Assembly: GCA_965203055.1 (NCBI GenBank)
Contig: OZ241863.1
Location: 480,001 to 544,000 of the forward strand
Length of the DNA: 64,000 nucleotides
DNA from: Spirochaetia bacterium
GTDB taxonomy: Bacteria; Spirochaetota; Spirochaetia; SZUA-6; Bin103
Direction of reading: 5' to 3'
Part shown: positions 8,822-51,614 of the stretch, one piece after another
How the letters are laid out: each line of letters begins with the position of its first letter
How positions within the stretch are numbered: the stretch's first letter is position 1
Made by a program: the position numbers and the translations under genes
The notes under the pieces: model-generated
Databases searched by the model: none
Told to the model about the DNA's origin: nothing
What the model saw: the letters and a program-made list of their open reading frames with translations, nothing else

Positions 8822-8822
8822 T

Positions 8823-32294: not shown

Positions 32295-32792
32295 ATGCGC
32301 GAGGCCGGCTCAAGCGCTCCGGCTGACGACCCCGTTGCCGCGATCCTGTCCCGGATCGAAGCAGCCGAGGGCTGGTATCACCGGCTGATCCTGGTGGCCG
32401 GCGCCGGCGGGTCAGGGAAGAGCGCGGCGCTGCGGGCGGTCGCGCAGGCCACCGGCGCGCCGGTGCTGAATCTCAACCTGGAGCTGTCCCGCCGGCTGCT
32501 GGAGCTCACCGCGCGGCAGCGCGTGCTGCGGTTGCCCGGCCTGCTGGACGAGCTGATCCCGGGCGACCGCTCGCCGGTCCTGCTGGACAACACCGAGCTG
32601 CTGTTCGAGCCGGCCCTGCGGACCGACCCCCTGAAGTTGCTGCAAGGCGCGGCGCGCAACCGCACGGTGGTGGCGGCCTGGAACGGCGCGCTGGCCGGCG
32701 GCTGGCTGACCTGCGCTGAACCCGGCCATCCCGAGTACCGCCGCTACCGGCAGGACGGTCTGGTAATCGTCTCCCTGGGGACGGTACCGTAA
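32295..32792 (+). CDS. brxF: BREX-3 P-loop protein
   Basis: [41 protein letters not shown]; first gene of the BREX-3 order. Confidence 0.85.
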
Positions 32793-32808: not shown

Positions 32809-35800
32809 ATGACCTATCGCGACGTGATCCGGTTCGAGCCGATCGAGACCGTGGTGCAGTTGCGCGACGCCGACCACGAATCGGCCGCCCGCGCGCTGGT
32901 TGCCACCTACGTGGTGAGCGACGAGATGGCGGAGAAGCTGACCGCCGTCCTGATCCCGCAGCTTCGGTTCGACCGCCCGGCCGACCACAAGGGCTTCCTG
33001 GTGGTGGGCAACTACGGCACCGGCAAGTCGCACCTGATGTCGGTGATTTCCGCGGTGGCCGAGCGCGGCGAGCTGCGCGACGCGCTCACCAACCGGGAGG
33101 TGGCCGCCGCGGCGCGTCCGATCGCCGGTCGGTTCAAGGTCGCCCGCACCGAGCTGGGCGCCACCACGATGGACTTCCGCGCCTTCGTCTGCTCGCAACT
33201 CGAAGAAGCGCTCGCCTCCTGGGGCGTCGCGTATCGGTTCCCCTCGCCTGACAAGATCCCGAACCACAAGGGGGCGTTCGAGGAGCTGATGGCGGCGTTC
33301 CACCGGCAGTACCCCGATCACGGGCTGCTGCTGGTGGTGGACGAGCTGCTCGACTACCTGAAGAGCCGCCGGGACCAGGAGCTGGTCCTCGACCTGAACT
33401 TCCTGCGCGAGGTGGGCGAAGTCTGCAAGGACCTCCGCTTCCGCTTCGTGGCCGGCGTGCAGGAGGCGATCTTCGACAGCCACCGCTTCGCCCACGCGGC
33501 GGACAGTCTGCGGCGCGTCCGGGATCGCTTCGATCAGCTCCTCATCGCCCGCGCTGACGTGAAGTACGTGGTCGCCGAACGGCTGCTCAAGAAGAATGGC
33601 CACCAGCAGGCGCAGATCCGCGGCTACCTGACGCCGTTCACCCGGTTCTACGGGAACATGAACGAGCGCCTGGACGAGTTCGTACGGCTGTTCCCGGTCC
33701 ATCCCGACTTCATCGACACCTTCGAGCGGATCACTTCGATCGAGAAGCGCGAGGTGCTGAAGGCGCTCTCCATCGCCATGAAGGCGAGTATCGACGAGGA
33801 GCTTCCATCCGACCGACCGGGACTGATCGCCTGGGACGCCTATTGGCGCACGCTGCGCGAGAACCCGGTGTTCCGCGCCGACCCCGACATCAAGGAGGTG
33901 ATCGATTGCAGCCAGGTGCTGGAGGCGCGCATCCGGCAGGCGTTCACCCGCCCGGCCTATCGGCCGCTGGCGCTGCGGATCATCCGCGGCCTGTCGGTGC
34001 ACCGCCTGACGCACCAGGACATCCACGCGCCGCTCGGCGCCACCGCGGCGGAGCTGCGCGACGGCCTGTGCCTCTACCAGCCGGGCATCGAGGACCTGGG
34101 CGGCGAGCCGGCCGACGATCTGCTCACCCAGGTGGAGACCGTGCTGCGCGAGATCCGGCGCACGGTCAGCGGCCAGTTCATCTCGGCCAGTCCCGACAAC
34201 GGCCAGCACTATCTCGACCTCAAGAAGACCGACGATTACGACGCCCTGATCGAGAAGCGCGCCGAGACCCTCGACGATGAGCAGCTCGACCGCTACTACT
34301 ACGCGGCGCTCAAGCGCGTGCTGGAGTGCACCGACGAGACCTACGTCAGCGGCTACCGGATCTGGGAGCACGAACTGGAGTGGCGCGAGCGCCGCGCCGC
34401 GCGGCGCGGCTACCTGTTCTTCGGGGCGCCCAACGAGCGCTCCACCGCGGTCCCGCCGCGGGATTTCTACCTGTACTTCATCCAGCCGCATGACCTGCCG
34501 CGCTATCGGGACCAGCAGCGCCCGGACGAGGTGTCGTTTCGGCTCACCGGTCAGGACGATGCCCTCCGGCACGCGCTCAGGAGTTGCGCGGCGGCCCTCG
34601 ACTTGGCGTCCCGCGCGTCCGGACACGCGAAGGAGGCGTACCAGGGGAAAGCGGACGGCTTCCTGCGGCACCTGACGAACTGGCTGCAGGAACGGATGAG
34701 CGCGGCGTTCGAGGTCACCTGCCGGGGACGGACCAAGTCCCTCATGGGGTGGGTCAAGGGGGTCCGGGGCGCGCTGACCGGAACCGGCGCGCGGGCCAAC
34801 GTGCGCGACTTGGTGAACGCCGTGGGGTCCGCGGCCCTGGCCGCCCACTTCGAGAACGAGGCGCCGGAGTATCCCGCCTTCGCGGACTACCACACCACGG
34901 CGAGCCGGCCGCAGGCGGTGGGCGGCGCGCTGCGGTGGATCGCCGGGGCCGGCACCAGCGCCGGCGCCGCGAAGACGCGGCAAGGAGCGAAGGTCCTCGA
35001 CGCCCTGGAGCTGCTTGACGGGGAACGGCTCGACCCCGGCCGCTCGCGGTACGCCCGGCACGTCGTCGAGCTGCTGCGCGGCAAGGGGCTGGGGCAGGTC
35101 CTGAACCGGGCGGAGCTGATCCACACGGTTCGGGACGTCGAGTACCTGGCCCCGGGGAGATACCGGCTGGAGCCGGAGTGGGTGGTCGTGCTGCTGGCCG
35201 CCCTGGTCTACTCCGGCGACCTGGTGCTGGCCATTCGCGGCAAGAAGATCGACGCGACCGACCTTGCGGGGCTGGCGGCCGCGCCGCTCGATGAGCTGGT
35301 CGACTTCAAGCACGTCGAACGCCCCAAGGAGTGGAACATCCCGGCGCTGCGCGCCGTATTCGAGCTGCTGGAGCTGACGCCGGGCATGGCGCAGCTCGTG
35401 GCGCAGGGCAAGGAGGAACCGGTGCAGGAGCTGCAGAAAGCCGTCACGGCCTGGGTGAACCGGCTGGTGACCGCGCAGCAGGCGCTGCGCGAGGGGGTGT
35501 ACTTCTGGGGACGGAACCTGCTCGACGAGCCGGCCGGCGGCCGCGACCCGCGCGGCGCGCTGGATGCCGCGAAGACGTTTCTCGAATCGCTGCAGCCGTT
35601 CTCAACCCCCGGCCGACTCAAGAACTTCCGGTACGAGGCGCACGACGTAGAGCGGCACCGGGCCGGCATGGAGGCCGTGCGCGAGGTGGAGTCCCTGCAG
35701 GAGTTGGCGGCGGCGCTGGGCGGCGCGGCGGCCTATCTGTCCGCGGCGGAGGCGATGCTGCCGAGCGGCGATGCGTGGACTGCGCGGATGAAGGACGGGC

Positions 35801-36552
35801 GGACGGCAGTCCTGGAACGGGTCGCCGATCCGGCGGCGCGGGCGCGGCCCGGGTTCCGGTCGGAGACGCAACGGGGGCTCGCGGAGCTCAAGGCGCGGTA
35901 TGTCCGCGCCTACCTCGACCTGCACGCGCGCGCCCGGCTCGGCGTCGACGACGACGCGCGCAAGCGCCGGCTCCTTACCGGCGCCCGCCTGCAGCAGGCC
36001 GCCGCGCTGGCGGCCATCGACCTGCTGCCCCGGCAGCGCCTGACCGACTTTCAGAACCGTCTGGCCGGCGTGCGGACCTGCTACGAACTTACCGAACAGA
36101 ACCTCGCCGCCGCCGCCGAATGTCCGCACTGCGGCTTCCGGCCGGCGGCCGAACCGACCCCGGCGCCCGCCGGCAAGGTGCTCTCGGCCCTCGACGACGA
36201 GCTCGACGCCATCCTCGCCGATTGGACCGCAGCGCTGCTCACCAACCTGGACGACCCCACTATCAAGGATCAGTTGGCACTGCTACGGCCGGGTCAGCGG
36301 GCGATGGTGCAGGAGTTCATCGCCTCCCGAACGTTGCCTGAGAAACTTGGCCACGATTTCATCGCCGCACTCCGCGACGCCCTCTCCGGCCTGACCAAGG
36401 TCACCGTGACCACAGCGGCGTTGCGCGCCGCGCTCGTCGCCGCCGGCTCCCCGGCTACCATCGACGACCTGAAGGACCAGTTCTCCGCCTACGTCGACCG
36501 GCAGGCGCGGGGGCACGACCCCGCCAAGGTCCGCATCGTCCTGGAAGAGTGA
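32809..36552 (+). CDS. brxC: BREX-3 large ATPase (BrxC/PglY, DUF6079-like)
   Basis: GNYGTGKSH Walker [12 protein letters not shown]alker B, CPHC near C-terminus; gene context. Confidence 0.85.
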
Positions 36553-36560
36553 GGTCCTAT

Positions 36561-37517
36561 ATGGCCGAAACCGATGCCCATGAAATCCCCCGCATGTACG
36601 CGGTCACCGGACTGCGCGATTTCTTCCGCTATCATCGCGACGTCTACGTCTCCGGCAACCTGCTGATCTACTACGAGGAGGGCAACGTCAATGCCGCGGT
36701 AGCTCCCGACGTGTTCGTCGTGTTCGGGGTGCCGAACCGCCCCCGGCCGATCTACAATCTGTGGGAGGAGGGCAAGAGTCCCGACTTCGTGTTGGAGATT
36801 ACCTCGCGCCACACTCGGAACGAGGACCACGGGCCGAAGCGGGAGCTGTACCAGTGGCTGGGCGTGCAGGAGTACTGGCAGTACGATCCGACGGAAGGCT
36901 ACCCGGAGCCGCGGTTGCGTGGTATGCGTCTGGTGGATGGGAGGTACGAGGCGCTGGCGGCGACCACCGTTTGGGGGAGGTCTCTGTTTGTGTACAGCGC
37001 GGTGCTAGGGCTGGAACTACGGGTAATGGAAGGGGATCTGCGTTTTCACGACCCCCGGACGGAACACACTATATTGACTCTCACCGAGAGCGACGAGGAG
37101 CTGATGCGGGAACTAGTGGACCGGGGGTGGCAGAACCAAGAGCAGTTGCAGGTAAAGGAGGCGTGGCAGCAGGAACAACTGGCGCGGCAGCAGGCGGAAC
37201 AGGCATGGCAGGGAGTAGAGCAGGCGTGGCAGCAGGAGCAACTGGCACGGCAGCAGGCGGAACAGGAGCGGCAGCAGGCGGAACAGGAGCGGCAGCAGGA
37301 ACGACTGGGGCGGCAGCGGGCGGAACGAGAGCGGCAGCAGGCAGAAGACGCGCGCCATGCGGCAGAAGCGCAGGTGGCGGAGCTGCAGGCATGCTGGCGC
37401 GGCGCCACGAACCCGGCGCCGACTCCGGTCCCAGAGGGTAAACGCCCTGCGGCCACCGACTGCCTCCTTGCAAGACGCTGCCGCGGACCGCTCGACGGCG
37501 AGCTGCGGGAACCGTAG
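36561..37517 (+). CDS. Uma2-family endonuclease with repetitive coiled-coil tail
   Basis: MAET..H, APDVFVV, PDFVLEITS, D..K..LY, EYWQYDP; true 3' end may be 37441 (see findings). Confidence 0.85.
   Translation: MAETDAHEIPRMYAVTGLRDFFRYHRDVYVSGNLLIYYEEGNVNAAVAPDVFVVFGVPNRPRPIYNLWEEGKSPDFVLEITSRHTRNEDHGPKRELYQWLGVQEYWQYDPTEGYPEPRLRGMRLVDGRYEALAATTVWGRSLFVYSAVLGLELRVMEGDLRFHDPRTEHTILTLTESDEELMRELVDRGWQNQEQLQVKEAWQQEQLARQQAEQAWQGVEQAWQQEQLARQQAEQERQQAEQERQQERLGRQRAERERQQAEDARHAAEAQVAELQACWRGATNPAPTPVPEGKRPAATDCLLARRCRGPLDGELREP
37159..37340 (+). repeat. Coding tandem repeats (21-bp and 63-bp periods) in Uma2 tail
   Basis: cagcaggcggaacaggagcgg x2 at 37251-37292; aggcgtggcagcagga at 37159 and 37222. 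Confidence 0.85.
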
Positions 37518-38094: not shown

Positions 38095-39147
38095 ATGGCC
38101 ATCCATCAGCCCCACGACCGTCTGTTCAAGCGCGTGTTCGGCGCCCCGGCGGAAGCCGCGTCATTCCTGCAAGCCAGGCTGCCCGCGCGGCTCAGCCGCT
38201 CCCTGCGCTGGCCCACGCTCAAGCGGCTCCCCGCTTCGTTCGTTGCCCCGGACCTCCGCGGCACCGCTTCCGACCTGCTGTTCGAGATCGGTTACGCCGC
38301 ACCCGGCGTCGCGCAGGCTCCGCTCTGGCTCTACCTGCTGTTCGAGCATCAGTCCACCCCGGACTACTGGCTGCGCCTGCGCCTGCTGGCCTACTGCTGC
38401 CGCATCTGGGAGCACGACCGCCAAGTCCACAAGGATGCCGGCTACCTGCGCCCGATCCTGCCGCTGGTGTTCTACCAGGGTCCCACCGGCTGGCAGCACT
38501 CCCCGCAGTTCGCGGACCTGTTCCCGGCCGCAACGCGGGACTGGCCATGGCTGCCGCGGTTCGAGCACGTGCTGTTCGACCAGACTCAGATGTCGCCGGC
38601 GCAGGCGGCCGGCAGCGTCCGGGCACGGTTGCTGCAACTGACGATGATGCACGCCTTCAGCCGCGCGATGCGGGAGGCGCGGGCGCGGATGCGGGCGCTG
38701 CTGGACGACTTGGAGCGGGAAGGAAGCGGCGGGCAGGACGACATGAAGATGTTCATGCACTATATCGCGGAGACGGGGCCTGAAGACACGCCCGAGGCGA
38801 TGGGCGATATACTGAGCCACACGGCGGCAGGAGGGGAGTTGATGACGAGCGGCGAGCGGCTGCGCCAGGAAGGGCGCGACCAGATGCGCGACCAGATGCG
38901 TAACGAGATGCGAGCGGTTGCCGAACAGCGGCACCGCGAGGGCCGGAGCGAGGGCCGGAGCGAGGGGCGACTCGAGGGCCGTCTGGAAGGCCAGCGCGAG
39001 GGGCGGCTGGAGACGATCGACGGTCTCCTGAGGACCGGCGTCGACTGGTCGTTGATCGAGCGGGCGACCGGGATCGGCGAGCAGGAGTATCAGAAGCTCA
39101 GGAGCCAACCCAACGGCGCGGCCGCGGCCGGCGGCGACGGGACCTGA
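38095..39147 (+). CDS. Rpn/YhgA-like recombination-promoting nuclease
   Basis: HQPHDRLFK, SDLLF, YLLFEHQS, PLVFYQG, C-terminal EGR 12-bp repeats. Confidence 0.9.
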   Translation: MAIHQPHDRLFKRVFGAPAEAASFLQARLPARLSRSLRWPTLKRLPASFVAPDLRGTASDLLFEIGYAAPGVAQAPLWLYLLFEHQSTPDYWLRLRLLAYCCRIWEHDRQVHKDAGYLRPILPLVFYQGPTGWQHSPQFADLFPAATRDWPWLPRFEHVLFDQTQMSPAQAAGSVRARLLQLTMMHAFSRAMREARARMRALLDDLEREGSGGQDDMKMFMHYIAETGPEDTPEAMGDILSHTAAGGELMTSGERLRQEGRDQMRDQMRNEMRAVAEQRHREGRSEGRSEGRLEGRLEGQREGRLETIDGLLRTGVDWSLIERATGIGEQEYQKLRSQPNGAAAAGGDGT

Positions 39148-39198
39148 CGACGCACCCAAAGGAGACCGGTCACCCGCCGTTCGCCGGGAGCGGCCGGC

Positions 39199-41085
39199 AT
39201 GGCTGAGCGAGACGACGGCTCCCAGAACAAGCTCTTCCGGACCGAGGTCGTTCCCGGTACGGCCGGCAGCGGACGCCTGTTCGACGAACAGGCGATGACG
39301 CCCGAACCGGTCGAGTGCCTGGGAATGACGTTCGCGTCCGGCGCCGCGCGGCGCGCGTACTTCATGGAGCGCCTGCGGGAACTGCTGCCGGAGCTGCGCA
39401 AGCGCCCCGACTTTCCCGCCGGCGATGACGAAGCCATCCTGCGGCTCTCCGATCCGCCCTGGTACACCGCCTGCCCCAACCCGTTCCTGGCCGACTTCGC
39501 GGCGCACTACGGCCGCCCCTACGACGCCGGCGAGCCGTATCACCGCGAGCCGTTCGCGGTCGACGTCAGCGAGGGCAAGACCGATCCGCTCTACCGCGCG
39601 CACGGCTACCACACCAAGGTGCCGCACCGGGCGATCGTGCCGTCGATCCTCCACTACACCAAGCCCGGCGACCTGGTGCTGGACGGGTTCTGCGGCTCGG
39701 GCATGACCGGCGTGGCCGCGCAGTGGTGCGGCACGGCGCCGGCCGAGTACCGGCGGAAGATCGAGCAACAGTGGCAGGCGGAAGGCCGCCCGGCGCCGGA
39801 GTGGGGTGGGCGCCGCGCGCTCCTGGGCGACCTGTCGCCGGCGGCGACCTTCATCGCCGCCAACTACAACACGCCGTTCGACGACGCCTTTGCCAAGGCG
39901 GCGCGGCAGCTCCTGGACGAGGTGGAAGCCGAGATCGGCTGGATGTACGAGACGCTGCATACCGACGGCAGGACGAAGGGCCGGATCAACTACACGGTAT
40001 GGAGCGAAGTGTTCTCGTGCCCGGAATGCGCCGGCGAAGTCGTGTTCCTCGACGCCGCGCTCGCCGGCGACCGGCGGACTCGGCCCGAGTTCCCGTGCCC
40101 GCACTGCTCGGCAAAGTTGACCAAGCGCAGTCTGGAACGGTCGTTCGAGACGTTCGTCGACCACGTTTCAGGTGACACATGGAGTCGAATACGGCTGCGG
40201 CCGGTGGCGATCAACTACGCGGTCGGCGCGTCAACCTGCGAGAAGGTGCCGGACGCTGACGATCTGGCGATGCTCGACCGGGTCACCAGCCTCCGGCGGC
40301 CGCTCGAAGTGCCGGTGAACGCCTTTGCCATCGACGAGATGTACCACGGATCGCGGCTGGCGCCGAAGGGATTTACCCACGTCCACCGCATGTTTCTGCC
40401 GCGATCTGCCCACGCCTTGGGGGCGATGTGGCGGCGCGCTACGGCGTGCGGCGAGCCGCGACTGCGGAACATGCTGCTGTTCTTCGTCGAGCAGGCGATC
40501 TGGGGCATGTCCGTCCTGAACCGCTATGGCCCTACCCACTTCTCCCAAGTGAACCGCCAGTTGTCAGGCGTCTACTACGTCGGTTCACAGATCGCCGAAG
40601 TCTCACCCCGGTATATCCTGGACGGCAAACGCGCCCGTCTGAGCAAGGTCTTCGCAGCGACTCACCGCCGGCACGACGTGACTGTTTCGACCGCCGACTG
40701 CGCGGCGACGACCCTGCCGGACGACTCCATCGACTACGTCTTCACCGATCCCCCGTTCGGCGAGAACATCTACTACGCCGACCTCAACTATCTCGTCGAG
40801 TCCTGGCACCGCGTCCTCACCGCCAGCCGCCCGGAAGCGATCATCGACCGCGCCAAGGGCAAGACCATCACCGACTATCAACGCCTGATGCAGCGCTGCT
40901 TCGCCGAGTACTGCCGCGTCCTCAAGCCGGGCCGGTGGATGACCGTGGTCTTCCACAACTCCCGCAACGCCGTGTGGAACGCCATCCAGGAAGCGATGCT
41001 CGCCGCCGGCTTCGTAGTCGCTGGGCATCCACATGTACGACCGCGTATCCGCCGTACTCGCCGAGTTAATCGCGAACTCATATGA
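39199..41085 (+). pseudogene. pglXI: BREX-3 DNA methyltransferase PglXI, C-terminally truncated at about 41022
   Basis: PPWYTACPNP, HGYHTKVPH, DGFCGSG, FTDPPF; host-like codon usage ends after GFVVA, last ~19 aa derive from unrelated DNA. Confidence 0.7.
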
Positions 41086-41104
41086 CGCCGACGCGACCAA
41101 GGTC
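41021..41104 (+). pseudogene. Relic of a GHKL (HATPase_c/MutL/MORC-like) ATPase N-terminus
   Basis: Hand translation LGIHMYDRVSAVLAELIANSYDADATKV contains the ExxxNxxDA motif; not in ORF track. Confidence 0.7.
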
Positions 41105-42218
41105 TCACGATGAGATAGTGAAGGTGTACCGTACCCAGACAGATCAGCGGCTTGATCTTTTGGTAGCCACGCCACCGTGCCAAGGAATGAGTTCTTCGAA
41201 TCCAAGCCGCGGGAGGAGGAGTACGAATCAGGGTCGCAAGGAAGATCTCAACAAGCTGATCCTCGAGGTCATTCCCGCGGCGACACGGCTTGGTCCCCGA
41301 ATCATCGTTGCAGAGAACGTCCGTCCAATCTTGACTCTTGAGGTGAGTTGTGGCGAACGTCGCCAGAAAGTCATCGACCACCTGAGAGACGGTTTGCCTG
41401 AATACCATTTCTTTTCCGGGATCATAAACGTCGCAGACTATGGTATCCCGCAGGACCGTCGCCGAGCGGTTGTAGTGGGTATCCGGCGCGACGAGCCGGG
41501 GCTTGGTTCGATTTGCGGCGCAAACGTCGTCCCATGGCCGCGGAGGACACACGCGGAATTTCCAGAGAATGGTCAATGCCAGTGGACGACTATCCGGCAG
41601 TGGATGGATTACGTGGGGTACGAGACTCTGGACTCGGCGTCATCAGCGGAGTCAATAGGCCGACACCCATTGCATTACGTTCCGAACTATGCCAATAATC
41701 CGGACCGTTACTTGCAGATTAGTCAGATTCCGCCGTATTCTGGTCGGAGCGCGTATGAAAACGACACGTGCCCGACTTGTCGTAGTCAGCCAATTCGCGC
41801 CGGAGTAGTCAAGTGCATACGTGGACACGTCATGCGCAATCGCCCGTACGTTCGCACCGGGAAGAGATTCAGACTCGTGAAGGGATTTCGATCAAGCTAC
41901 CGAAGAATGGCTCCCGACCAACCCGCCCGAACGATCACTACGAACACCAGCCACGTTGGCAGTGACTTCAAGATTCATCCATGGGAGAACAGGGTCCTGA
42001 GCACTCTCGAGTGCTCCGATCTCCAGACCGTCCCACGGTTTTTTAACTGGTCAAGTGCCATCGACGCTCAACCTAGGAGTAAGCGATACTTGATTAGAAA
42101 CTTAATTGGCGAGGCATTTCCTCCGTATTTCACTTTTCTCCATGGTAAGGTACTTGCTGAAGCGCTTCAGAACTCTCACTTCGATGCCAAGCACTTCGCC
42201 CATGACGTACGGCAGTAA
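41082..42218 (+). pseudogene. DNA (cytosine-5) methyltransferase lacking N-terminal motifs I-III
   Basis: TPPCQGMS (IV), ENV (VI), PQDRRR (VIII), RVLSTLECSDLQ (IX), IGEAFPP (X); no FxGxG, in-frame TAA at 41067 upstream. Confidence 0.8.
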
Positions 42219-42340
42219 ATCGTCTGTCGGCCGAAGTGACCAAGCCGGATCTTACGCGAGACGGCTATCAGTCAGATGACGATCTGAGCATCGATTGGAT
42301 TGGACTCTGAGTGTCGATCAGTCGAGGATCGGAAGACGTG

Positions 42341-44965
42341 ATGCGCGTTGATGCCAGTGGCGCTTCCGGCTTGGATTTGCTGTCGCATCCGCTGGTGCTC
42401 AAGGGGGCTTGGATGCGCGTTGACGCTTGGTACCGCAGTGGTAATCTGGCACCCGAGCCGGAATTGTCACGCTGGCGACTCCATCCCGAAGCAGAACTGC
42501 GCGAGATAGGAGCAGCGCTGCGTGCCGGTAAGTGGCGTCCGAGCCTCTGGCAGCAGGTTCCGTACCCGAAGAAGGGAGCGTGTCTGCGCCACTACGTGGT
42601 GCCGACCGTCCGCGATCAGGTTGCATTTATGGCGTACATGGTGCTCCTTGGTCCCTTGGTGGATAGTCGTGTCCCGGATTTCGTGTTCGGCAACCGGTGG
42701 AACCGCAAGATCGTCTGGGATCGTCGGTGCGTCAAGCCGCAGTGGGTTCTGCATCCCTATCAGCTGCTGACCAACACCGCGTACTTGCCGTATTCACGAT
42801 CGCATGGCATGTTTCGGCGGGTCACGCACTGGACCGTGGCTCGTATGACCGGCGCGCGGATCGAGCACAAAGACTATGGCGGTTACGTGCAGCATCCGGA
42901 CGACTACGCATCCCGGCTTCCCCAATGGACCCGCAGAGAGTGGTCTCCGCCAAGCTCCGACAACGCGAGCGTCTACTGGGCGGCCCTCGATATCGAGCTT
43001 GCCTATCCCTCTATCTACCTTGGACGACTGCGTAAGGCGTTGGTCGAAATGCTGGGAAAACCTTCAACGGTCGAGGAACTGAAAACAATATATGGCGGTT
43101 ATCCACAGCCGATTCTTGTTGCGCTTGCTAATCGGAAAGAGGTCCAATGCATCGCAGGCGGTCTCGTGGACGCCCTCGAGAAGGTTGAGATCGACGCTGG
43201 ACCGATCCCTGAGAACTCCTGGCGTCCGAAACACGCGATAGGAAATCTGCCTCCCCAAAAGGACTCGGGTCTTCCCACCGGCCTTGCGGTTTCAGGCATT
43301 TTGCTAAACGTGGCGCTCCATCCTGCGGATCAATCGATCGAGCGTTATTTGCATGAACACCGTCACGAAGCCATCACTAGGTTTGCCGATGAAATATTCG
43401 TCCTGGCCCGCTCACTCGGTGGGCTGTTCGACCTCATGGAAGCCGTGTGGCGGGGGCTTGCCCAGGATGAGAACGCACGGTTGGCAAACCCTGAAACGGA
43501 ATCAAATCTCCATTTGAACTGGACCAAGATCGAGCCGAAGTCGATCCACGACATCATTGTTTGCTTCCTCAAGGCTCATGGTTGGAAAAAGTGTGAGCAT
43601 GGTACGGCTCTCTACTACTGTACGACCCCGGATCAAGTCTCGGGACTTCGCAAGTGGTGGTATGAACATCGCGAAGATCAGGAGTATGCTCGCATGTCAG
43701 ACGCCACCAAGCGTTCCGCCATTGGCTCTGGTGAAGTGGGACCATTTGTAACGACGTTGGTAGCTCGCATGAGCGAAATTGGCCGAGATACTTTGACCGA
43801 GCGGTTCGGCGAAGGGGCGCGGCAAAGGCTGATCCGGCTTCACGATTTGGCTAGATTCGACATCGACGACGTACAGGTAAGGTCGGACACCCGCCGCGCT
43901 TTCGCCGCGAACCGCCTCGTACGTGCCTGGCTACCTCCGGAGAGTTCACGCCGGGATCTTGCCGACATCCGCGACTCGGTCGCTCATGTGTTCCGAAACA
44001 CACCGTGGAAGTTCTCGCTCTGGCGGGCCGTCGTTCGCGCGGCCGCGCGCCGGCCGCAACGACCAAATCAGGCGGATGATCGCACTGCGCGGGACTGGCT
44101 GTCGAGTCAACTCGGATTGATAGCTGATCCGCCCGATGAGCGTCGCTTGGAGGTATGGATGACCACATGGCCGGAAGACAACGTCAGCGAGCAGCCCGAT
44201 CGGGATCCAAGTTGGCTTGGCCTGTACCTATCGTTCCACCGCACGGCGTTCTGGCAAGCATTGGCGGAGGGCCTCAGATGGCTATGGCGGCATGACGATG
44301 AGGCGTCCCACCCTGTCGCCGCCGGGTACGCCGGTCCCTCACCGAGTCGTTGGACCGTACGAGCTATACCACAGGGCGCGCACGCGAGCGTGCGCAGGCA
44401 TCTCGGCGCACTTGACCAATGGGTCGACGTACTCTACAAGCCTGATACGATTGAAGATCTTCGTAGATGGCCTTGGGAATTGAATCAGCTTACCGCCGCT
44501 GCTATTGCGTCGGCCTCACGCTACGACTTGGCCGTAACGTGGCGCCATGCCGAGCCTCCCGGTGACGCAGAGTTGAAGGTACCCGCCGGGCCACTTTGGC
44601 GGACCATACCGAAAACGATACAGTATCTCGAGCTGTTGGAACGCGTGAGTAGACACTCAACCGAACACGATCTTGACCTGTGCACTCTGCCGCACTTGTG
44701 GCTTGGCGGGCAGGATCGACGACTGGGTGATTTCCTTTTTCCTCGTGGTGGCGGGTCCCGAATTGACTCAAAGGAAGAACGTCCGCGCATCGTCGCGGCA
44801 GGCATATCGCTCGGATGCTCCGAGAGCATCAGCGCGGAGTTCGCGGCAGCGCTTGTGCCCAAACCTACCTGCGCGGGCAAATCGCTTCGCGATGATGGTC
44901 TTGCTCTGTGGGAGTATCACCGGGCACGGAGCATCCTTCTGGGACAGCCCGGAGAACTGCGATGA
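42341..44965 (+). CDS. Large UG/Abi-like reverse transcriptase with long C-terminal extension
   Basis: PYPKK...R....VRDQV, FGNR, LDIELAYPSI (Asp at 42989), GLPTG...SGILLN (43268), RFADEI (43382-43393), LHLNWTK; alternative GTG start 42311. Confidence 0.85.
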   Translation: MRVDASGASGLDLLSHPLVLKGAWMRVDAWYRSGNLAPEPELSRWRLHPEAELREIGAALRAGKWRPSLWQQVPYPKKGACLRHYVVPTVRDQVAFMAYMVLLGPLVDSRVPDFVFGNRWNRKIVWDRRCVKPQWVLHPYQLLTNTAYLPYSRSHGMFRRVTHWTVARMTGARIEHKDYGGYVQHPDDYASRLPQWTRREWSPPSSDNASVYWAALDIELAYPSIYLGRLRKALVEMLGKPSTVEELKTIYGGYPQPILVALANRKEVQCIAGGLVDALEKVEIDAGPIPENSWRPKHAIGNLPPQKDSGLPTGLAVSGILLNVALHPADQSIERYLHEHRHEAITRFADEIFVLARSLGGLFDLMEAVWRGLAQDENARLANPETESNLHLNWTKIEPKSIHDIIVCFLKAHGWKKCEHGTALYYCTTPDQVSGLRKWWYEHREDQEYARMSDATKRSAIGSGEVGPFVTTLVARMSEIGRDTLTERFGEGARQRLIRLHDLARFDIDDVQVRSDTRRAFAANRLVRAWLPPESSRRDLADIRDSVAHVFRNTPWKFSLWRAVVRAAARRPQRPNQADDRTARDWLSSQLGLIADPPDERRLEVWMTTWPEDNVSEQPDRDPSWLGLYLSFHRTAFWQALAEGLRWLWRHDDEASHPVAAGYAGPSPSRWTVRAIPQGAHASVRRHLGALDQWVDVLYKPDTIEDLRRWPWELNQLTAAAIASASRYDLAVTWRHAEPPGDAELKVPAGPLWRTIPKTIQYLELLERVSRHSTEHDLDLCTLPHLWLGGQDRRLGDFLFPRGGGSRIDSKEERPRIVAAGISLGCSESISAEFAAALVPKPTCAGKSLRDDGLALWEYHRARSILLGQPGELR

Positions 44966-46704
44966 GGACAGTCTCGCTACACCGGCTGCTGTGGGGTGCC
45001 CTTGCGGAAACCGTTCCGCCACATGAGTGGCCTCTTCGACCTTGGGAACTCCCGGCGGTTGGACTTCCGGCTCGTGTTGCCGTCTCTCTGTTCAGTTCCG
45101 CGATAAGTGAGCTGCCTCCGAAGGACTGGGAAGCGACACATGGTCCGTTGTCGTGGACCGTCGGCCGCGGGGCTGACCTGCTCGCAATGGGAAGGCGCCA
45201 CCAGCTGGAACTTGCGGCAGGCGAGCCAACTGATGTCGATCCGGCTGAACCGGAGGTGCACAGGTCGTCGGACTGGGACGTACCGCCGCACGCGGCTTAC
45301 TTTCTACCTCGTCTAGCCACAACATCGGTTGACGCCAACAGTTATGCCGTCTATTGCGACGTATTGATGCTACTCACCGCAATCGACGGTGAGGAGTCGA
45401 TTCTCGATGCTATAGTGGACCATGGTACGGGTGCAGTGCCGTTTGAGGATCGATGGAGTTGGCGCTCTCGCATCCATCTGCCCAAAGAAGCGTGGCGTCT
45501 GATCGAGCGAACTCTGCGCTGGGCGGAGAACCCAGTCGAGGATGTCGAGCAGATCGTGAAGTCGCTTGCCGTGGCCTTGGAGGAATGGAGGCCCGCCAAG
45601 GTCGGGTTCGATGACTTCGTTCGCGAGCGAGTCGACGTGCTGCTGGACGCGAGAGACGAACACGAGGGCACGCGTACGGTGCGCCTCCCTGATTCACCTG
45701 ACTCGGAGCTACCGACCGAGTTAATGCTGCAGGATAGGCAACTCTACGATCAGTTTGTCGTGCGCATAGGGCAGATCGATGCCTGGACGCCGAAAGCGCA
45801 TGTCGTTGCGAACTTCCCTGCGATGGCTCCGGGATCGATACGTGGCATCATGGAGCAAGTAGCGTATGCGTTCCGATCTCCAAGCCACGGTAGCCCCGAT
45901 CACACACCCGACTTGGTTCTACTCCCGGAGGTCTCGATCCCACAGCCCGAAGTCCCGGTAGTGCGCGACTTGGTTGCAAGAACAGGTCGCGCGGCGCTGG
46001 CCGGCTTGTACTGGCAGGAGCTCAAGCCCGTGTATCGGGCATGTTACGGGACGGTGCCGGCCAGGAAGTGGTTCGTCAACGAAGCTGAACTCGTGATCCC
46101 TTTCGGACGCGACGATCGTGGTCCGCCGAGCATCCGCTGGTACCGCGTACGGAAGCCGCTGCCGGCGCACAATGAAACAGGTTTGGCGCAAGCCCTTTCC
46201 GCACAGTCGCCAGGTACGACGTGGCGCATTCTACGGGGCTACCGGTGGTACCGTTTCGTGCATCGCCGGTGGGGCGACTTTACGATTTCCATCTGCGCGG
46301 ATTTGATCGATACGGCTCCTTGGCGGTCACTACGCGGCGAGTTGCTCCATCTGTTCATGGTCGCCTTCAACAAAGACGTAGATCTCTATGATTCCCTCAC
46401 CTGGGTCAGGGCATACGAGACCTACGTGAACCTTGTCTCTGTAAATCACGGCCAATATGGTGGCTCCTTTCTCTGGACGCCGCGCCGAAGCCACTCCCAC
46501 GAGCTTGCTCGACTCCGGGGACAAAAGCTGTTCGTTACTGCCGACATCACCATTCCGGTGAAGGACCTGCTTGCGGCGCAGCGTCTCGGTGTTCGGGACG
46601 CTATCTCGACGGCAGCATGCGATTGGGCCGGGACTCAGCACCAACGGTCCGCGTTCAAGTCACCGCCTCCCGGATTCCAGCGACGAGCCCTTCTGATTGT
46701 GTAG
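44962..46704 (+). CDS. Protein with C-terminal nitrilase/carbon-nitrogen hydrolase domain
   Basis: Triad DLVLLPE (E 45928), RKPLPA (K 46153), ICAD (C 46294), VNHGQYGGS; GGAG 7 nt before ATG; ATGA overlap with RT. Confidence 0.85.
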   Translation: MRTVSLHRLLWGALAETVPPHEWPLRPWELPAVGLPARVAVSLFSSAISELPPKDWEATHGPLSWTVGRGADLLAMGRRHQLELAAGEPTDVDPAEPEVHRSSDWDVPPHAAYFLPRLATTSVDANSYAVYCDVLMLLTAIDGEESILDAIVDHGTGAVPFEDRWSWRSRIHLPKEAWRLIERTLRWAENPVEDVEQIVKSLAVALEEWRPAKVGFDDFVRERVDVLLDARDEHEGTRTVRLPDSPDSELPTELMLQDRQLYDQFVVRIGQIDAWTPKAHVVANFPAMAPGSIRGIMEQVAYAFRSPSHGSPDHTPDLVLLPEVSIPQPEVPVVRDLVARTGRAALAGLYWQELKPVYRACYGTVPARKWFVNEAELVIPFGRDDRGPPSIRWYRVRKPLPAHNETGLAQALSAQSPGTTWRILRGYRWYRFVHRRWGDFTISICADLIDTAPWRSLRGELLHLFMVAFNKDVDLYDSLTWVRAYETYVNLVSVNHGQYGGSFLWTPRRSHSHELARLRGQKLFVTADITIPVKDLLAAQRLGVRDAISTAACDWAGTQHQRSAFKSPPPGFQRRALLIV

Positions 46705-46815: not shown

Positions 46816-49635
46816 GTGTTGCAACCCGGTGATTGGGCGTGGAGCCCCGCGCACCGGCAGGTTTGCCGGGTGGTCGAGACGCAGGACCTGTGGGGAGCGG
46901 CGCAGCGCCGGGTCTGGCTGCCGGCTTCCGAGGCGTTCGTCCGGGTTCGGTCGGACCAGCTCCGTCCGCTCTCGGAGTCGGCCGTCGCGGGGCGCTCGTG
47001 GCTGACCTACGCGGCAGCCGCGGCGCGGGTCGCCGGCGCGCTGGCGCAGGACGCGCTGCTGGCGCCGATCGAGTCGCCGGTCATCCCGTTGCCGCACCAG
47101 ATCAGTGCGCTGGCGCGGGCGACGGCGGGCAACCGCGTCCGCTATCTGCTGGCGGACGAAGTCGGACTCGGCAAGACGATCGAGGCCGGTCTCATCATGC
47201 GCGAGCTCAAGCTGCGCGGCATCGTACGGCGAACCTTGGTGGTGGCCCCCAAGGGGCTCGTCAACCAGTGGGTGGCGGAGCTGCGCACCCACTTCGCCGA
47301 GGAGTTTCGCGCCTTCCTGCCGAGCGACTTCCCCGCCTTCCGCCGCATCGCGCCGGCGGACAACGTCTGGCGAACCTGCGATCAGATCGTGTGCCCGCTG
47401 GATGCGGTCAAGCCGCTCGACGGCCGCCGCGGGTGGTCGCGGGAACGGGTGGCCGAGCACAACCGCGACCGGTTCGAGGACCTGACCGCCGCCGGCTGGG
47501 ACCTGATCATCATCGACGAGGCGCATCGCCTGGGCGGCAGCACCGATCAGGTCGCCCGCTATCAGCTTGGCCGCGGGTTGGCGGAGGCCGCGCCTTGTCT
47601 GCTCCTGCTCTCCGCGACCCCGCATCAGGGCAAGACCGACGCGTTCCATCGGCTGCTGTCGCTGATCGACGCGACCGCGTTCCCCGACCCCGGCGCCATC
47701 TCCAGCGAACGGGTCCGGCCATTCGTGATCCGCACCGAGAAGCGGCGCGCGATCGACGCCGACGGAAAGCCGTTGTTCAAGCCGCGCCATACCCGCCTCG
47801 AACCGATCGCCTACGATGAGCGGCACGCCGGCCAGCGCGCGCTCTACGAGGCGGTGACCGAATACGTGCGCGACGGCTACAACCGGGCGCTGCGGGAACA
47901 CCAGGGGCACCTCGGCTTCCTGATGATCCTGATGCAGCGGCTGGTCACCTCCTCGACCCGCGCGATCCGCGTCACCCTGGAACGCCGCCTCGAAGCGCTG
48001 GCCGCGCCGGGCGAGCAGCTCCTGCTGTTTCCCGAGCTGACTGACGAGGAATGGGCCGACCTCGACGGCCAGGAGCAGATCGACACGTTGCTCTCCAGCC
48101 GGTTGAGCGCCCTCAAGAACGAACGCGCGGAGGTGACGCTGCTCCTCGAAGCGGCCCGGCGGACGGAGCGCGCCGGCGCCGATGCCAAGGCGGAAGCCCT
48201 GCTCGGCTGGATCTATCGGTTGCAGCAGGAGGAGAGCGACCCCGATCTGAAGGTCCTGATCTTCACCGAGTTCGTCGCCACGCAGGAGATGCTGCGCGAA
48301 TTTCTGGCCGACCGGGGATTCCCGGTGGTCTGTCTCAACGGATCGATGGGATTGGAGGAACGCGCGCAGGCGCAGCAATCGTTCGCCGGCGCGGCCCGCT
48401 TCCTGGTGTCGACCGACGCCGGCGGCGAAGGTCTGAACCTGCAGTTCTGCCACGTGGTGGTCAACTACGACATTCCCTGGAATCCGATGAAGCTGGAGCA
48501 GCGGATCGGCCGCGTCGACCGCATCGGCCAGACCCACGCCGTGAGGGCCGTCAACTTCGTGGTCCGGGATACGGTCGAGCACCGCGTCCGCGAGGTGCTG
48601 GAGGAGAAGCTGGCGGTCATCCTGGCGGAATTCGGCGTCGACAAGACCGAAGACATCCTCGATTCGGCGCAGGCCGGACAGATGTTCGACGATCTCTACG
48701 TCGAGGCGATCGTCCGCCCACACGGTCTGCGCGCCCGGGTCGATGCCGTGATGCGCGAGGTCGGACGGCAAGGCCAGGCGGTCCGCGAGAGCGCCGCGGT
48801 CTACGGGAGCGCCGAAGCGCTCGATCCGGGACCGGCGCGGCGCCTGCGGTCTCACCCCCTGCCGCACTGGATCGAAACCATGGTCGTCAACTACCTCCGC
48901 GCGCACGGCGGCGCCGCAGACCGGAGCGGCCAGACCTGGAACCTGACGTGGCCGGACGGCGAGCGTCTGGAAGCCGTCTCGTTTGCCGCCGGGGGCGCGC
49001 GGGGCGCGCCCCGCGACCTGTCCGCCCGCCAGCTCACGCTCGACGACCCGCGGGTGCGCGCGCTCGTCGAGCGGCTCCCCCGGTTCGCCCCCGGCCAGCC
49101 GATCCCCTGCCTTGCGCTGGAACGATTGCCGGCCGAGGTGCGGGGCTTCTGGTCCCTGTGGCAGATCACGCTGCACGCCCCCGAGCGAGGCCGCAGCCGC
49201 GTCATGCCGCTGTTCCGCCACGACGACGGGCGGATATTCGCGCCGACCGCGCGGTTCATCTGGGACCGGCTGCTGGCCGGCGCGCCGGCTGCCGGCCCTG
49301 CTCTCCACGGGCCTGCTCTCCACGGCGCAGCGGCCGCCGCGGCGTTCGCGGCCGTCGAACGGTCGGCCCGCGAGCATGGCCGGCCGGTCTACCAGGAGCT
49401 GCTCCTCGCCCACCGCGCGGACGTCGCCGCGCGCCGCGAGCGGGGCGAATACTCCTTCGCCGCCCGGCGCCGCTCCATCGGGCGGATCGGGCTGCCGGCG
49501 GTGCGCAACCATCGCCTGGCGCAGCTTGCCGCCGAGGAGCGGTCGTGGCGCGCGGCGCTCGCGCGCGAGAACGAGTCCAGCCCGGACCTGGCGCCGCTGA
49601 TCGTCGTCCGGGTGGAGGGAGCGGGCGGTTCGTGA
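46816..49635 (+). CDS. brxHII: BREX-3 SNF2-type helicase
   Basis: LADEVGLGKT, DEAH, SATP, GEGLNLQ, EQRIGRVDRIGQ. Confidence 0.88.
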   Translation: MLQPGDWAWSPAHRQVCRVVETQDLWGAAQRRVWLPASEAFVRVRSDQLRPLSESAVAGRSWLTYAAAAARVAGALAQDALLAPIESPVIPLPHQISALARATAGNRVRYLLADEVGLGKTIEAGLIMRELKLRGIVRRTLVVAPKGLVNQWVAELRTHFAEEFRAFLPSDFPAFRRIAPADNVWRTCDQIVCPLDAVKPLDGRRGWSRERVAEHNRDRFEDLTAAGWDLIIIDEAHRLGGSTDQVARYQLGRGLAEAAPCLLLLSATPHQGKTDAFHRLLSLIDATAFPDPGAISSERVRPFVIRTEKRRAIDADGKPLFKPRHTRLEPIAYDERHAGQRALYEAVTEYVRDGYNRALREHQGHLGFLMILMQRLVTSSTRAIRVTLERRLEALAAPGEQLLLFPELTDEEWADLDGQEQIDTLLSSRLSALKNERAEVTLLLEAARRTERAGADAKAEALLGWIYRLQQEESDPDLKVLIFTEFVATQEMLREFLADRGFPVVCLNGSMGLEERAQAQQSFAGAARFLVSTDAGGEGLNLQFCHVVVNYDIPWNPMKLEQRIGRVDRIGQTHAVRAVNFVVRDTVEHRVREVLEEKLAVILAEFGVDKTEDILDSAQAGQMFDDLYVEAIVRPHGLRARVDAVMREVGRQGQAVRESAAVYGSAEALDPGPARRLRSHPLPHWIETMVVNYLRAHGGAADRSGQTWNLTWPDGERLEAVSFAAGGARGAPRDLSARQLTLDDPRVRALVERLPRFAPGQPIPCLALERLPAEVRGFWSLWQITLHAPERGRSRVMPLFRHDDGRIFAPTARFIWDRLLAGAPAAGPALHGPALHGAAAAAAFAAVERSAREHGRPVYQELLLAHRADVAARRERGEYSFAARRRSIGRIGLPAVRNHRLAQLAAEERSWRAALARENESSPDLAPLIVVRVEGAGGS

Positions 49636-51614
49636 CGAGCTGGCGTGATTCGATCCTCGCGGAGCTCGCCCCGCACGCCGCCCGGCTCACGATCGCGGCC
49701 GACCCCGACGGCCTGCTGCTGGAAGCGGGGGTGCTCCAGGAAATCGCGGCGCGCGGGTTCGAGCTGATCACGGTCGAGGATCGCGTCGCGTTCCGCTTCA
49801 CCTACGAATCGCGCTACCGTTCGCGCGGGGACCGCGGCGAGCGCACCGGCCCGGGCCTCGTGCTGCGGACCGACGAATCGGACCTGGGCGCGCTGCCGTA
49901 CGATCTCCTGCACGCCGGCCGGCGGGTCTCGTTCAGCCTGGGCGCGCTGTTCCCGCACCTGAGCCGCGCGGTCATGAGCACGCTGGAGCGGAGCGACCTC
50001 GATGCCCTGTATCAGGCGCAGACGCGCGCGCCGCCGGCCCGCCCGCTCGGTGACGCTCAGACCGCCGACTTCGTCCTGCGCCACGTCTTCGGGATCGCGC
50101 CCGAAACCATCAGGCAGGAGTCCGATCTGCTCCGCTTCCTGTTGCGCCGGCACTACCGCGAGCTGCGCATTCCGGCGCCGCTCGACGATCACCTGCTCCG
50201 GCTGCTGGCGCGGAACCCGGCGTTCGCCGCTTGGCCGTTGCGCCGGATCATGGCCGACCGCGAGGCGTTCTTCGCGTTCCTGCAGGAGCGCTGGCCGGCC
50301 TTCCTCGACCGGCGCACGACCGACGCCGCCACGATACGCGATCCGGCCACCGCTTCCGAAATCTCGTTCGACCACCCCGACGTGCGAGTCTACCTCGACA
50401 ACCTCTTCCTGGAGGGTTTTCTCCGGCCCGTACCGCACCCGCGCGCCGCGCGGCTGGCCGGCTCGTGGGAGATCGCCGGCATCAGGCGCGACCCGGCCGC
50501 CGATCGGCAGCGCCGGCTGGCAGGGCTGCTGAACGCCGTCGAGACGTCGATCCCCGCGCCGACCGCGCGGCACCAGGAGTGGCTGGCGTTCGCGCGGCGC
50601 TGGGCGCAGGTGAACGCCCTCCGGTTCGGCGCCAACGGCGGCCCCGGCGCCGCTGAATCCCGGTCCCGGTACGCCGCCATCCGCGATCGGATCGACGCGG
50701 CCTTCGCGGCGTGGCTCGCACAGCGCTACGGCGCGCTCCACAACCAGCCGCCGCTGCCGCCGGTGATGGTCCACCACGTGCCGCGCATGCTCGCCCGGGC
50801 TCTGGAAGAATCTGCCGAGGCCAAGGCGGCGCTGGTGCTGGTGGACGGCCTGTCGCTCGACCAGTGGTCCACGGTCCGCGGCGTGCTGGCCGAGCAGCGG
50901 CCGGGCCTGCGGTTCCGGGAGGGCGGCCTGTTCGCGTGGATACCCACGCTCACCATGGTGTCGCGGCAGGCGTGCTTCAGCGGCCGCCCGCCGCTCTACT
51001 TCCCGTCCAGCATACACACCACCGACCGCGAGCCGGCCGCGTGGCAGCGGTTCTGGGCGGACGCGGGACTGTCCGCGGCCGAGGTCGGTTATCAAAAGAC
51101 CCTGCGCGACCGAGCCGATCTGGACCGCGCCGCGCAGCTCGCGTCGCATCCTGGCGTGCGCGTGGCCGGACTGGTCGTCGACGCGGTCGACCGGATCATG
51201 CACGGCATGACGCTCGGCCAGTCCGGCATGCACAACCAGATACGCCAGTGGACGAGGCGGGGCGTGCTGGCGGACCTGCTCGACCTGCTGCTCGACCACG
51301 GCTTCGCGGTCTGGCTCACCTCCGACCACGGCAACGTCGAGACGCGCGGCTGCGGCCGTCCGGGCGAGGGCGCCGCCGCGGACCTGCGCGGCGAACGGGT
51401 TCGCGTCTACTCCGATCCGGGGCTGCGCGCGCGGGTGGCGGAGCGGTTTCCGGACGCGGCGGCGTGGCCGTCACTCGGGCTGCCGGACGACTACCTGGCG
51501 TTGATCGCTCCCGGCCGAGCGTCGTTCGTCCGCCCGGCGGAGCGTCCCGTGGCGCACGGCGGAATCACGCTGGAAGAGGTGGTCGTGCCGCTGGTGCGGA
51601 TCGAACGGCAATGA
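49632..51614 (+). CDS. pglZ: BREX-3 PglZ phosphodiesterase-domain protein
   Basis: DPDGLL, LVLVDGLS, PTLTMVSRQ, TSDHG, HGGITLEEVVVP; GTG start overlaps helicase stop. Confidence 0.9.
   Translation: MTSWRDSILAELAPHAARLTIAADPDGLLLEAGVLQEIAARGFELITVEDRVAFRFTYESRYRSRGDRGERTGPGLVLRTDESDLGALPYDLLHAGRRVSFSLGALFPHLSRAVMSTLERSDLDALYQAQTRAPPARPLGDAQTADFVLRHVFGIAPETIRQESDLLRFLLRRHYRELRIPAPLDDHLLRLLARNPAFAAWPLRRIMADREAFFAFLQERWPAFLDRRTTDAATIRDPATASEISFDHPDVRVYLDNLFLEGFLRPVPHPRAARLAGSWEIAGIRRDPAADRQRRLAGLLNAVETSIPAPTARHQEWLAFARRWAQVNALRFGANGGPGAAESRSRYAAIRDRIDAAFAAWLAQRYGALHNQPPLPPVMVHHVPRMLARALEESAEAKAALVLVDGLSLDQWSTVRGVLAEQRPGLRFREGGLFAWIPTLTMVSRQACFSGRPPLYFPSSIHTTDREPAAWQRFWADAGLSAAEVGYQKTLRDRADLDRAAQLASHPGVRVAGLVVDAVDRIMHGMTLGQSGMHNQIRQWTRRGVLADLLDLLLDHGFAVWLTSDHGNVETRGCGRPGEGAAADLRGERVRVYSDPGLRARVAERFPDAAAWPSLGLPDDYLALIAPGRASFVRPAERPVAHGGITLEEVVVPLVRIERQ

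Follow-up and report, generated by a model that had tools for sequence, protein, structure and literature searches.

Nitrilase-Associated Reverse Transcriptases

Class 3 reverse transcriptases (RTs) of the UG/Abi lineage carry or accompany a nitrilase. In UG1, UG5-large, and UG29 the two are described as fusions, in UG5-small the nitrilase is encoded by a separate gene of cluster 249, and UG6 is reported to have, besides a separate nitrilase gene of cluster 285, a DnaG-type primase gene of cluster 192 and a C-terminal domain with remote likeness to kinases (PMC9226505, PMC13436386). The subject of this study is a pair of genes, encoding an RT and a nitrilase-superfamily protein, that lies inside a type 3 bacteriophage exclusion (BREX) locus of a Spirochaetia bacterium (GenBank assembly GCA_965203055.1, contig OZ241863.1, positions 480,001 to 544,000). 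This whole stretch of 64,000 nucleotides is called the window, and coordinates are counted from its first letter. The block of interest spans positions 41021-46704, with all of its open reading frames (ORFs) on the + strand.

Protein-primed, untemplated DNA synthesis has been reported for DRT1 (UG1) and, in vitro, for DRT5S/L (PMC13275509). In DRT1, the DNA adduct is described to assemble a dormant filament, and the nitrilase is released in infection, which leads to abortive infection; the active sites of both the RT and the nitrilase are required for this outcome (PMC13275509). A literature search turned up neither additional named UG groups nor any account of BREX being associated with an RT-nitrilase. 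One candidate paper on a BREX-nitrilase link was set aside, as it concerned the unrelated Nit1C nitrilase.

We consider it probable that positions 42341-46704 encode a two-gene antiphage system, made of an RT and a nitrilase, that belongs to a Class 3 group sister to UG6, resides as an autonomous guest in the BREX type 3 locus, and works by a DRT1-like mechanism, the methyltransferase and GHKL sequences upstream of it being debris. This reading is built on the anatomy and homology of the genes, the conservation of their catalytic residues, the fused forms among relatives, and the location of the unit inside defence loci. An initial annotation of the window had instead proposed one module composed of a C5 cytosine methyltransferase, an RT, and a nitrilase. 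The three co-oriented ORFs on which it relied (a C5 methyltransferase body, an RT of 874 amino acids (aa), and a nitrilase protein of 580 aa) are all present on the + strand; their grouping is reconsidered below.

The RT and Nitrilase Genes

The RT domain takes up about aa 1-530 of the RT; the C-terminal remainder (residues ~531-874) is all-helical and has no family match. A PADLOC run on the window, which the initial annotation had suggested as a check, recovered the BREX-3 gene models; the best models for the RT are all DRT/UG RTs, with RT_UG6 first as a partial match. NCBIfam gave nothing specific for either the RT or the nitrilase protein, and no PDC or HEC model matched either of them at E ≤ 1e-3. 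The AlphaFold2 (AF2) model of the RT has a predicted local distance difference test (pLDDT) score of 79 and a predicted template modelling (pTM) score of 0.87, and a Foldseek search with it against the PDB returned group II intron, diversity-generating retroelement, DRT9, and Abi RTs, i.e., generic RT folds only.

All 27 aligned members retain the motif A Asp and the Asp that comes first in motif C. Motif C, located at 43391-43402 in the window, reads FADD in 24 of these 27 and FADE in the window RT and two relatives (P0002 and P0009). The latter form appears to be tolerated, because the two relatives that share it have only 69-72% identity to the RT of the window. Scoring of 8000 candidates gave 270 RT relatives at E ≤ 1e-3, which fall into length classes of ~810-950 aa and ~1400-1500 aa, and a profile search of 1.84 billion representatives retrieved 179, 408, and 1119 representatives (at 50% identity) at thresholds of 1e-30, 1e-10, and 1e-3, respectively. 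The window RT had no match by tblastn among 72,556 plasmids.

The possibility that the gene encodes a group II intron or retron RT was considered and rejected: no Rfam intron or noncoding RNA matched between 36000 and 48000 at E ≤ 0.1, the matches to TIGR04416 and to 6ar1, a group II intron RT structure, are weak and partial, and the nitrilase is always attached.

The nitrilase protein consists of a conserved N-terminal region of ~310 aa and a C-N hydrolase domain. Pfam returned no match for the protein; residues 1-310 matched no fold family, and an Atlas search with them returned clusters without names, none of them above 0.85. The PADLOC RTasNitrilase match (1e-33) was scored on the longer ORF 44908-46704, where it covers aa 331-592, and it is accompanied by matches to RT_UG5-nitrilase (5e-23) and Drt1a (1.8e-11). 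The E-K-C catalytic triad, which the initial annotation had described as intact, corresponds to E323, K398, and C445 of the window protein and is invariant in 33 of 33 aligned members. The AF2 model of the protein has a pLDDT of 74; used as a Foldseek query against the PDB (library to 2026-04-08), it returned amidases, carbamoylases, and generic nitrilase-superfamily folds, and 9YFD was not among the returns. The protein has 134 relatives at E ≤ 1e-3, mostly of ~580 aa, and tblastn against the plasmids gave three weak matches to the nitrilase domain. The window RT and nitrilase are regarded as real genes, because 270 and 134 relatives, respectively, were found at this threshold and the catalytic residues are conserved.

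The relation between the two genes was examined at 40 related loci (L001-L040) from genome assemblies, all of them metagenome-assembled genomes belonging to many phyla, which together with the window make 41 loci. Their surroundings were assigned by clustering of ORFs followed by PADLOC and Pfam searches on the representatives; the neighbor scan took up to three ORFs (≥150 aa) on each side per locus with one representative per cluster, amounting to 181 ORFs out of the 317 that lie within 6.5 kb. The nitrilase is encoded directly 3′ of the RT in 37 of the 40 loci, the three misses being two contig ends and one RT fragment. Among these 37 loci, the two parts are fused in frame in 19, split in 15, and degraded in three, and most of the splits occur at the junction used in the window, where the start codon of the nitrilase gene overlaps the stop codon of the RT gene (ATGA). 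Along the RT tree, the unit switches between the fused and the split state, with at least 8-9 forced changes, and the split layout is, by these counts, only a variant that recurs in a predominantly fused protein. Since the RT and the nitrilase are fused in relatives, the two window proteins are expected to associate. Natural fused and split forms that are cut at one junction would help in working out how the nitrilase is controlled by the RT.

In L011 (11828-13213) and L014 (12033-13073), an inserted ORF interrupts the fused RT-nitrilase in the helical region of the RT, and these loci can be viewed as natural knock-outs.

The initial annotation had noted that no small partner gene is evident in the window, and this holds over the 41 loci, where no conserved small ORF accompanies the RT-nitrilase and a single small ORF on the same strand resembles a transmembrane (TM) protein. 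Two of the three plasmid matches, RT-nitrilase fusions of 1235 and 1069 aa that were used as an outgroup, each have a small ORF after them (L041 5183-5605, 140 aa; L042 3659-4129, 156 aa). These small ORFs resemble the partner gene that has been described in UG1 and UG5-large, and they have no counterpart in the family of the window.

Relationship to UG6 and Other Class 3 Groups

Two features place the unit in Class 3, namely, an RT domain of the UG/Abi lineage and a C-N hydrolase that is fused to or associated with the RT. The kinship with DRT1 asserted in the initial annotation is upheld at this level by the matches of the nitrilase protein to RTasNitrilase, Drt1a, and PDB entry 9yfd (the last at 2.4e-7).

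The window RT obtains 77 bits on the RT_UG6 model and covers only positions 138-348 of 925, and its family ranges from 40 to 86 bits; seven true UG6 proteins, found in the tail of the profile search, obtain 700-1100 bits over the whole 925-position model. Profile-profile alignment of the family with UG6 by hhalign gave a probability of 100% and an E value of 2.7e-38, which applies only to residues 4-530 of the family and 6-467 of UG6; the C-terminal halves do not align, leaving the pseudo-kinase region of UG6 unmatched. On an RT tree of 72 rows, the UG6 clade (support 100) is sister to the clade that contains the window's family (support 99). Furthermore, no Toprim or DnaG-type primase was detected in the scanned window ORFs, nor, at E ≤ 1e-8, in the 181 neighbor ORFs of the 40 loci. 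Thus, because the UG6 scores are partial, the sister clade is separate, and none of the named groups tested matches, the family is filed as an uncatalogued group of a known class. As judged from these comparisons, the RT clade is the sister of UG6 and not UG6 itself, and it forms an uncatalogued Class 3 UG/Abi RT-nitrilase group that is not represented by any PADLOC v2 model.

The RT clade nearest to the family is UG6, which corresponds to family "E" in the naming of Kojima & Kanehisa; its nitrilase is described as encoded by a separate downstream gene, a layout also seen in the window. Across the window's family this layout is mixed, the nitrilase being split off in 15 of 37 loci and fused in 19. 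The family differs from UG6 in that its nitrilase protein has the additional conserved N-terminal region of ~310 aa and no primase gene was found at the positions scanned. UG5-small/DRT5S, as described, resembles the window in having two genes, an RT and a separate nitrilase, and no transmembrane partner; the difference is that, at E ≤ 1e-3, none of the UG5 RT models finds the window RT, and the UG5 match is limited to the nitrilase domain. DRT1, whose structure is 9YFD, likewise pairs an RT with a nitrilase effector that relies on E-K-C chemistry, but it is a single fused protein of ~1230 aa, 18% of its genes are accompanied by a small TM partner, and the window RT reaches only 1.3e-6 on the PADLOC Drt1a model.

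The window's RT therefore fits none of the named groups tested (UG6, DRT1/UG1, and UG5-small), as the initial annotation had anticipated. Its further claim that the arrangement is architecturally distinct is not supported, as a separate downstream nitrilase gene has already been described in UG6 and UG5-small (PMC9226505, PMC13436386). The group adds a sizeable branch (179 representatives at E ≤ 1e-30) to the RT-nitrilase defence systems, one that the 2023 PADLOC models detect weakly or not at all and that was found here only in genomes of uncultured lineages.

The Methyltransferase Pseudogene and the Broken pglXI

The methyltransferase was the third component of the module put forward in the initial annotation, in which cytosine methylation would be coupled to the RT-nitrilase. 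The three ORFs are co-oriented and contiguous, and all of them have a GC content below that of their flanks. The methyltransferase, however, is truncated. The chance ORF that contains it (41082-42218, 378 aa) begins before the true homology, which starts at 41103; residue 8 of the ORF aligns to residue 74 of relatives of 445 aa, with 90% identity from there onwards. Because ~73 N-terminal residues are missing, the protein lacks the S-adenosylmethionine-binding motif I, which is located near residues 24-31 of the relative P0385 and outside the aligned part of the ORF. Many relatives are fused to Vsr, and the family is, to judge from them, of the ordinary Dcm type. In addition, tblastn found a homologue of the methyltransferase at none of the 40 related loci, and the PF00145 domain occurs in none of the 181 neighbor ORFs, which is the outcome that the initial annotation itself had named as speaking against its module.

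The origin of the segment can be followed by comparison with L001, the closest related locus. Window positions 39199-41021 are 77% identical in nucleotide sequence to L001 7134-8977, and this homology ends at 41021; the start of the block is therefore a real breakpoint. Positions 42365-51604 of the window are again collinear with L001 (10001-19288, 74% nucleotide identity), from the RT through pglZ. The intervening sequence (41022-42364) stands where L001 has the 3′ end of pglXI. As a result, the window's pglXI keeps ~607 codons, after which its ORF reads through foreign sequence to a stop at 41085. The PglXI relatives in L001, L003, L004, and L006 are 927-1000 aa long, that of L003 spanning positions 7-918 of the profile; the rest of PglXI was sought elsewhere in the window and not found, which leaves the window with an incomplete PglXI.

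A fragment of a GHKL ATPase, in its own reading frame, separates pglXI from the methyltransferase; its Pfam match is weak (20.5 bits vs a 25-bit cut-off, profile positions 4-23 of 137, with a query of 30 residues). The GC content also divides the block, with 54.5% on the methyltransferase side (41021-42340) and 59.7% in the RT-nitrilase. On the strength of the comparison with L001, the methyltransferase and GHKL fragment (41021-42218) are debris that replaces the 3′ third of pglXI, brought in by a separate recombination event. Taken together, the truncation, the replacement of an L001-type pglXI end, the interposed fragment, the ordinary and often Vsr-fused relatives, the difference in GC content, and the absence at all 40 loci make the three-gene module very improbable. 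For the annotation of the window, the methyltransferase should be corrected to a pseudogene, and the BREX locus should be recorded as lacking the end of pglXI.

With the 3′ third of pglXI exchanged through recombination, the BREX system of this genome is probably no longer functional. Since L001 stays collinear from the RT through pglZ while the methyltransferase segment replaces the pglXI end, the RT-nitrilase is, by the same sequence comparison, older than this damage.

The loss of pglXI might extend to the guest, in which case the whole region would be a decaying defence island with a dead BREX, a failing RT-nitrilase, and nothing functional. Besides the truncated pglXI and the two gene fragments, the FADE form of motif C and the degraded copies elsewhere (interrupted in L011 and L014; remnants in L024, L027, and L030) would fit such a course. 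On the other hand, the window RT and nitrilase are full length and have no internal stops, along their entire length they share 69% and 76% identity, respectively, with the proteins of L001, the nitrilase retains its triad, and FADE is found also in two RTs that have diverged well from that of the window. We judge general decay improbable, and a functional RT-nitrilase guest is the better explanation.

Embedding in Methylation-Based Defence Systems

The initial annotation placed the block between pglXI and brxHII of a BREX-3 system, and both the position and the system are borne out: PADLOC puts PglXI at 39199-41085 and BrxHII at 46816-49635, and six BREX-3 genes flank the block. Altogether, the RT-nitrilase is embedded in a large methylation-based system in 14 of the 41 loci. 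Six of these are BREX-3 (the window, L001, L003, L004, L006, and the remnant L027) and four are BREX-1 (L016, L018, L025, and L030), where the unit lies between brxC and pglX along with an RmrA-like gene and HEC-01. In the three Hma loci (L017, L020, and L022) it lies between hmaC and hmaB, with ShosTA, and in the single locus of the defence island system associated with restriction-modification (DISARM; L032) between drmMI and drmA, where SoFic and an ATPase-Toprim protein are its companions. HEC-01, ShosTA, SoFic, and the RmrA-like genes count as known guests. The neighbors at other loci include DruE, restriction-modification enzymes, JetA, a CBASS-like nucleotidyltransferase, a KAP NTPase, or integrases or transposases. 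The GC content of the RT-nitrilase is below that of its flanks in 32 of 38 loci, and the RT tree mixes host phyla, as is expected of mobile defence genes.

Genes embedded in BREX, Hma, DISARM, and type I restriction-modification systems have been reported to be defence systems themselves in many cases, and that preprint predicts defence genes from this pattern (bioRxiv 10.1101/2024.01.29.577857). The units described here resemble these embedded genes ("guilt by embedding", e.g., BrxU in BREX) in being co-oriented guests inside methylation-based systems; as a difference, the main text of that preprint contains neither "reverse transcriptase" nor "nitrilase" (bioRxiv 10.1101/2024.01.29.577857).

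The DISARM locus offers a further example of this crowding, as three guest units occupy the space between drmMI and drmA of L032 (2-21689), namely, an AriAB-like ATPase-Toprim protein, a fused RT-nitrilase, and SoFic.

Such frequent embedding raises the question of whether the guest, instead of being independent, cooperates with its host as a working accessory of BREX, Hma, or DISARM. It might be a backup effector that responds to inhibition of the host system, or in BREX-3 it might fill in for the BrxHII helicase. In L003 (7099-17477), L004 (6999-16579), and L006 (7197-16433), the gene order is brxF-brxC-pglXI-RT-nitrilase-pglZ-brxA, and no BrxHII homologue was found within the 10-kb flanks. 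Furthermore, the ends of the genes overlap or abut their BREX neighbors, and BrxC, the RT, and the nitrilase all rank the five intact BREX-3 loci alike by identity, which suggests, as far as identity values go, that RT-nitrilase and BREX-3 have long been co-resident. Nonetheless, 27 of the 41 loci lie outside such systems, some of them with no defence neighbors, the same slots hold unrelated autonomous systems, and both the window and L001 possess BrxHII in addition to the RT-nitrilase. The BREX-3-embedded RTs are not resolved as one clade either, requiring four changes on the best tree, although they may have a single origin. Finally, the relatives DRT1 and DRT11 (UG5-large) are reported to work alone (PMC13275509, PMC13436386). 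An accessory role is, in our estimate, unlikely.

A stricter version of this idea would make the RT-nitrilase a true component of a BREX type 3 subtype, at the place of BrxHII. The clade would then be specialised for methylation-based immunity and for life inside BREX-1, BREX-3, Hma, and DISARM, and the nitrilase or the DNA adduct would supply the BREX exclusion step or act as a tripwire when phage proteins block BREX. This version, too, appears doubtful. The recurrence in the four kinds of host, together with the three loci in which the unit takes the place of brxHII, nevertheless provides a concrete test of guest-host cooperation.

The BREX-3 loci show another recurrent neighbor, a protein of ~330 aa (cluster C40) encoded beside the RT-nitrilase in L001 (19432-20448), L003 (14449-15414), and L027 (12161-12829). 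In L003 its gene is located between the nitrilase gene and pglZ. The L001 copy has no Pfam match, and the L001 and L003 copies match only positions ~370-577 of 597 of the PADLOC retron model RT_III-A.

Proposed Mode of Action

For the autonomous two-gene system favored here, we infer a DRT1-like mechanism by analogy, which extends to the mode of DNA synthesis, the formation of a complex, the trigger, and the abortive outcome. The RT and the nitrilase would be made as separate chains through coupled translation and would act as one complex. As suggested by homology to DRT1 and DRT5, the RT would synthesize short, untemplated DNA primed on a protein residue. This DNA adduct would then drive assembly of an oligomer with the nitrilase, which would be kept poised but silent. 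A cue from the replication stage of the phage would free the nitrilase, and its action on an amide or amine substrate would stop the infected cell, i.e., cause abortive infection.

Several points weigh against this reading, either in part or as a whole. The priming serine of DRT1 is reported as not conserved in other Class 3 groups (PMC13275509), and the FADE in motif C of the window RT may weaken its polymerase activity. In the AF2 model of the nitrilase, residues 445-522, with the catalytic Cys among them, are poorly modelled (pLDDT < 50). UG6, the nearest group, received an "inconclusive" defence prediction (PMC9226505), and some of the related loci (L021, L037, and L031) are found amid housekeeping genes. 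As for the classification, the UG6 reference sequences were identified by PADLOC score only, and the tree is a quick LG+G4 search rooted by two long-branched plasmid RT-nitrilase fusions.

The BREX Type 3 Locus and Its Surroundings

The features of the locus are collected in Table 1. The BREX type 3 set reportedly consists, in the original classification, of brxF, brxC, pglXI, brxHII, pglZ, and brxA in this order; in the window, all six match PADLOC models and occur on the + strand in the expected order.

Table 1. Genes and gene fragments of the BREX type 3 locus and its guests in the window
Feature	Coordinates	Strand	Evidence
brxF (BREX type 3)	32295..32792	+	PADLOC BrxF 1.6e-50
brxC (BREX type 3)	32809..36552	+	PADLOC BrxC full length, 1823 bits; Pfam DUF6079
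Uma2-family putative nuclease, embedded guest	36549..37517	+	Pfam Uma2 1.2e-15; PADLOC PDC-S03 1.2e-8 (weak)
Rpn/YhgA-like recombination-promoting nuclease, embedded guest	38095..39147	+	Pfam PF04754 2.3e-38; NCBIfam TIGR01784 over cut-off
pglXI, 3′-truncated	39199..41020	+	PADLOC PglXI 1e-231, profile positions 6-591 of 919
GHKL (HATPase_c_3) ATPase N-terminal fragment, ~27 codons, own reading frame	41021..41102	+	Pfam HATPase_c_3 5.2e-4
C5 cytosine methyltransferase pseudogene	41103..42218	+	PF00145 profile positions 48-311 of 324
Reverse transcriptase, 874 aa	42341..44965	+	PADLOC RT_UG6 2.3e-22 (partial); Pfam RVT_1 7.5e-4
Nitrilase-superfamily effector (putative), 580 aa	44962..46704	+	PADLOC RTasNitrilase 1e-33; PDB 9yfd (DRT1) 2.4e-7
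brxHII (BREX type 3 helicase)	46816..49635	+	PADLOC PDLC02500 (named BrxHI|BrxHII, described as BrxHI), 1416 bits, profile 2-930 of 933
pglZ	49635..51614	+	PADLOC PglZ 2.9e-264, profile 2-664 of 666; aa 529-1187 of ORF 48051-51614
brxA	51617..52354	+	PADLOC BrxA 1.2e-60; aa 303-539 of ORF 50711-52354

The GC content of the window is ~69%. That of the block (41021-46704) is 58.5%, with 68.9% in the BREX genes on the left (32295-41020) and 72.1% in those on the right (46816-52354). The hand counts on which the initial annotation had based this contrast (26 of 60 at 42061-42120 and 44 of 60 at 47041-47100) are exact on recount. No flanking direct or inverted repeats marking the block 41021-46704 were found.

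Other parts of the locus are variable as well. The slot between brxC and pglXI holds the Rpn/YhgA-like gene in the window vs a Schlafen AlbA_2 / HATPase_c_4 protein in L001, L003, and L004. The 3′ half of the Uma2-family gene contains a tandem repeat of 21 nucleotides (seven residues) in at least nine copies, at 37097-37369.

Farther upstream, the ORF at 1606-5592 partly resembles, over a match at ~4100-5300, methyltransferase models of the DUF1156/HmaB type and of the PglXI type, and the adjoining region (5000-9000) has a GC content of 61-65%. This area is possibly a second, degraded defence locus, ~27 kb upstream.

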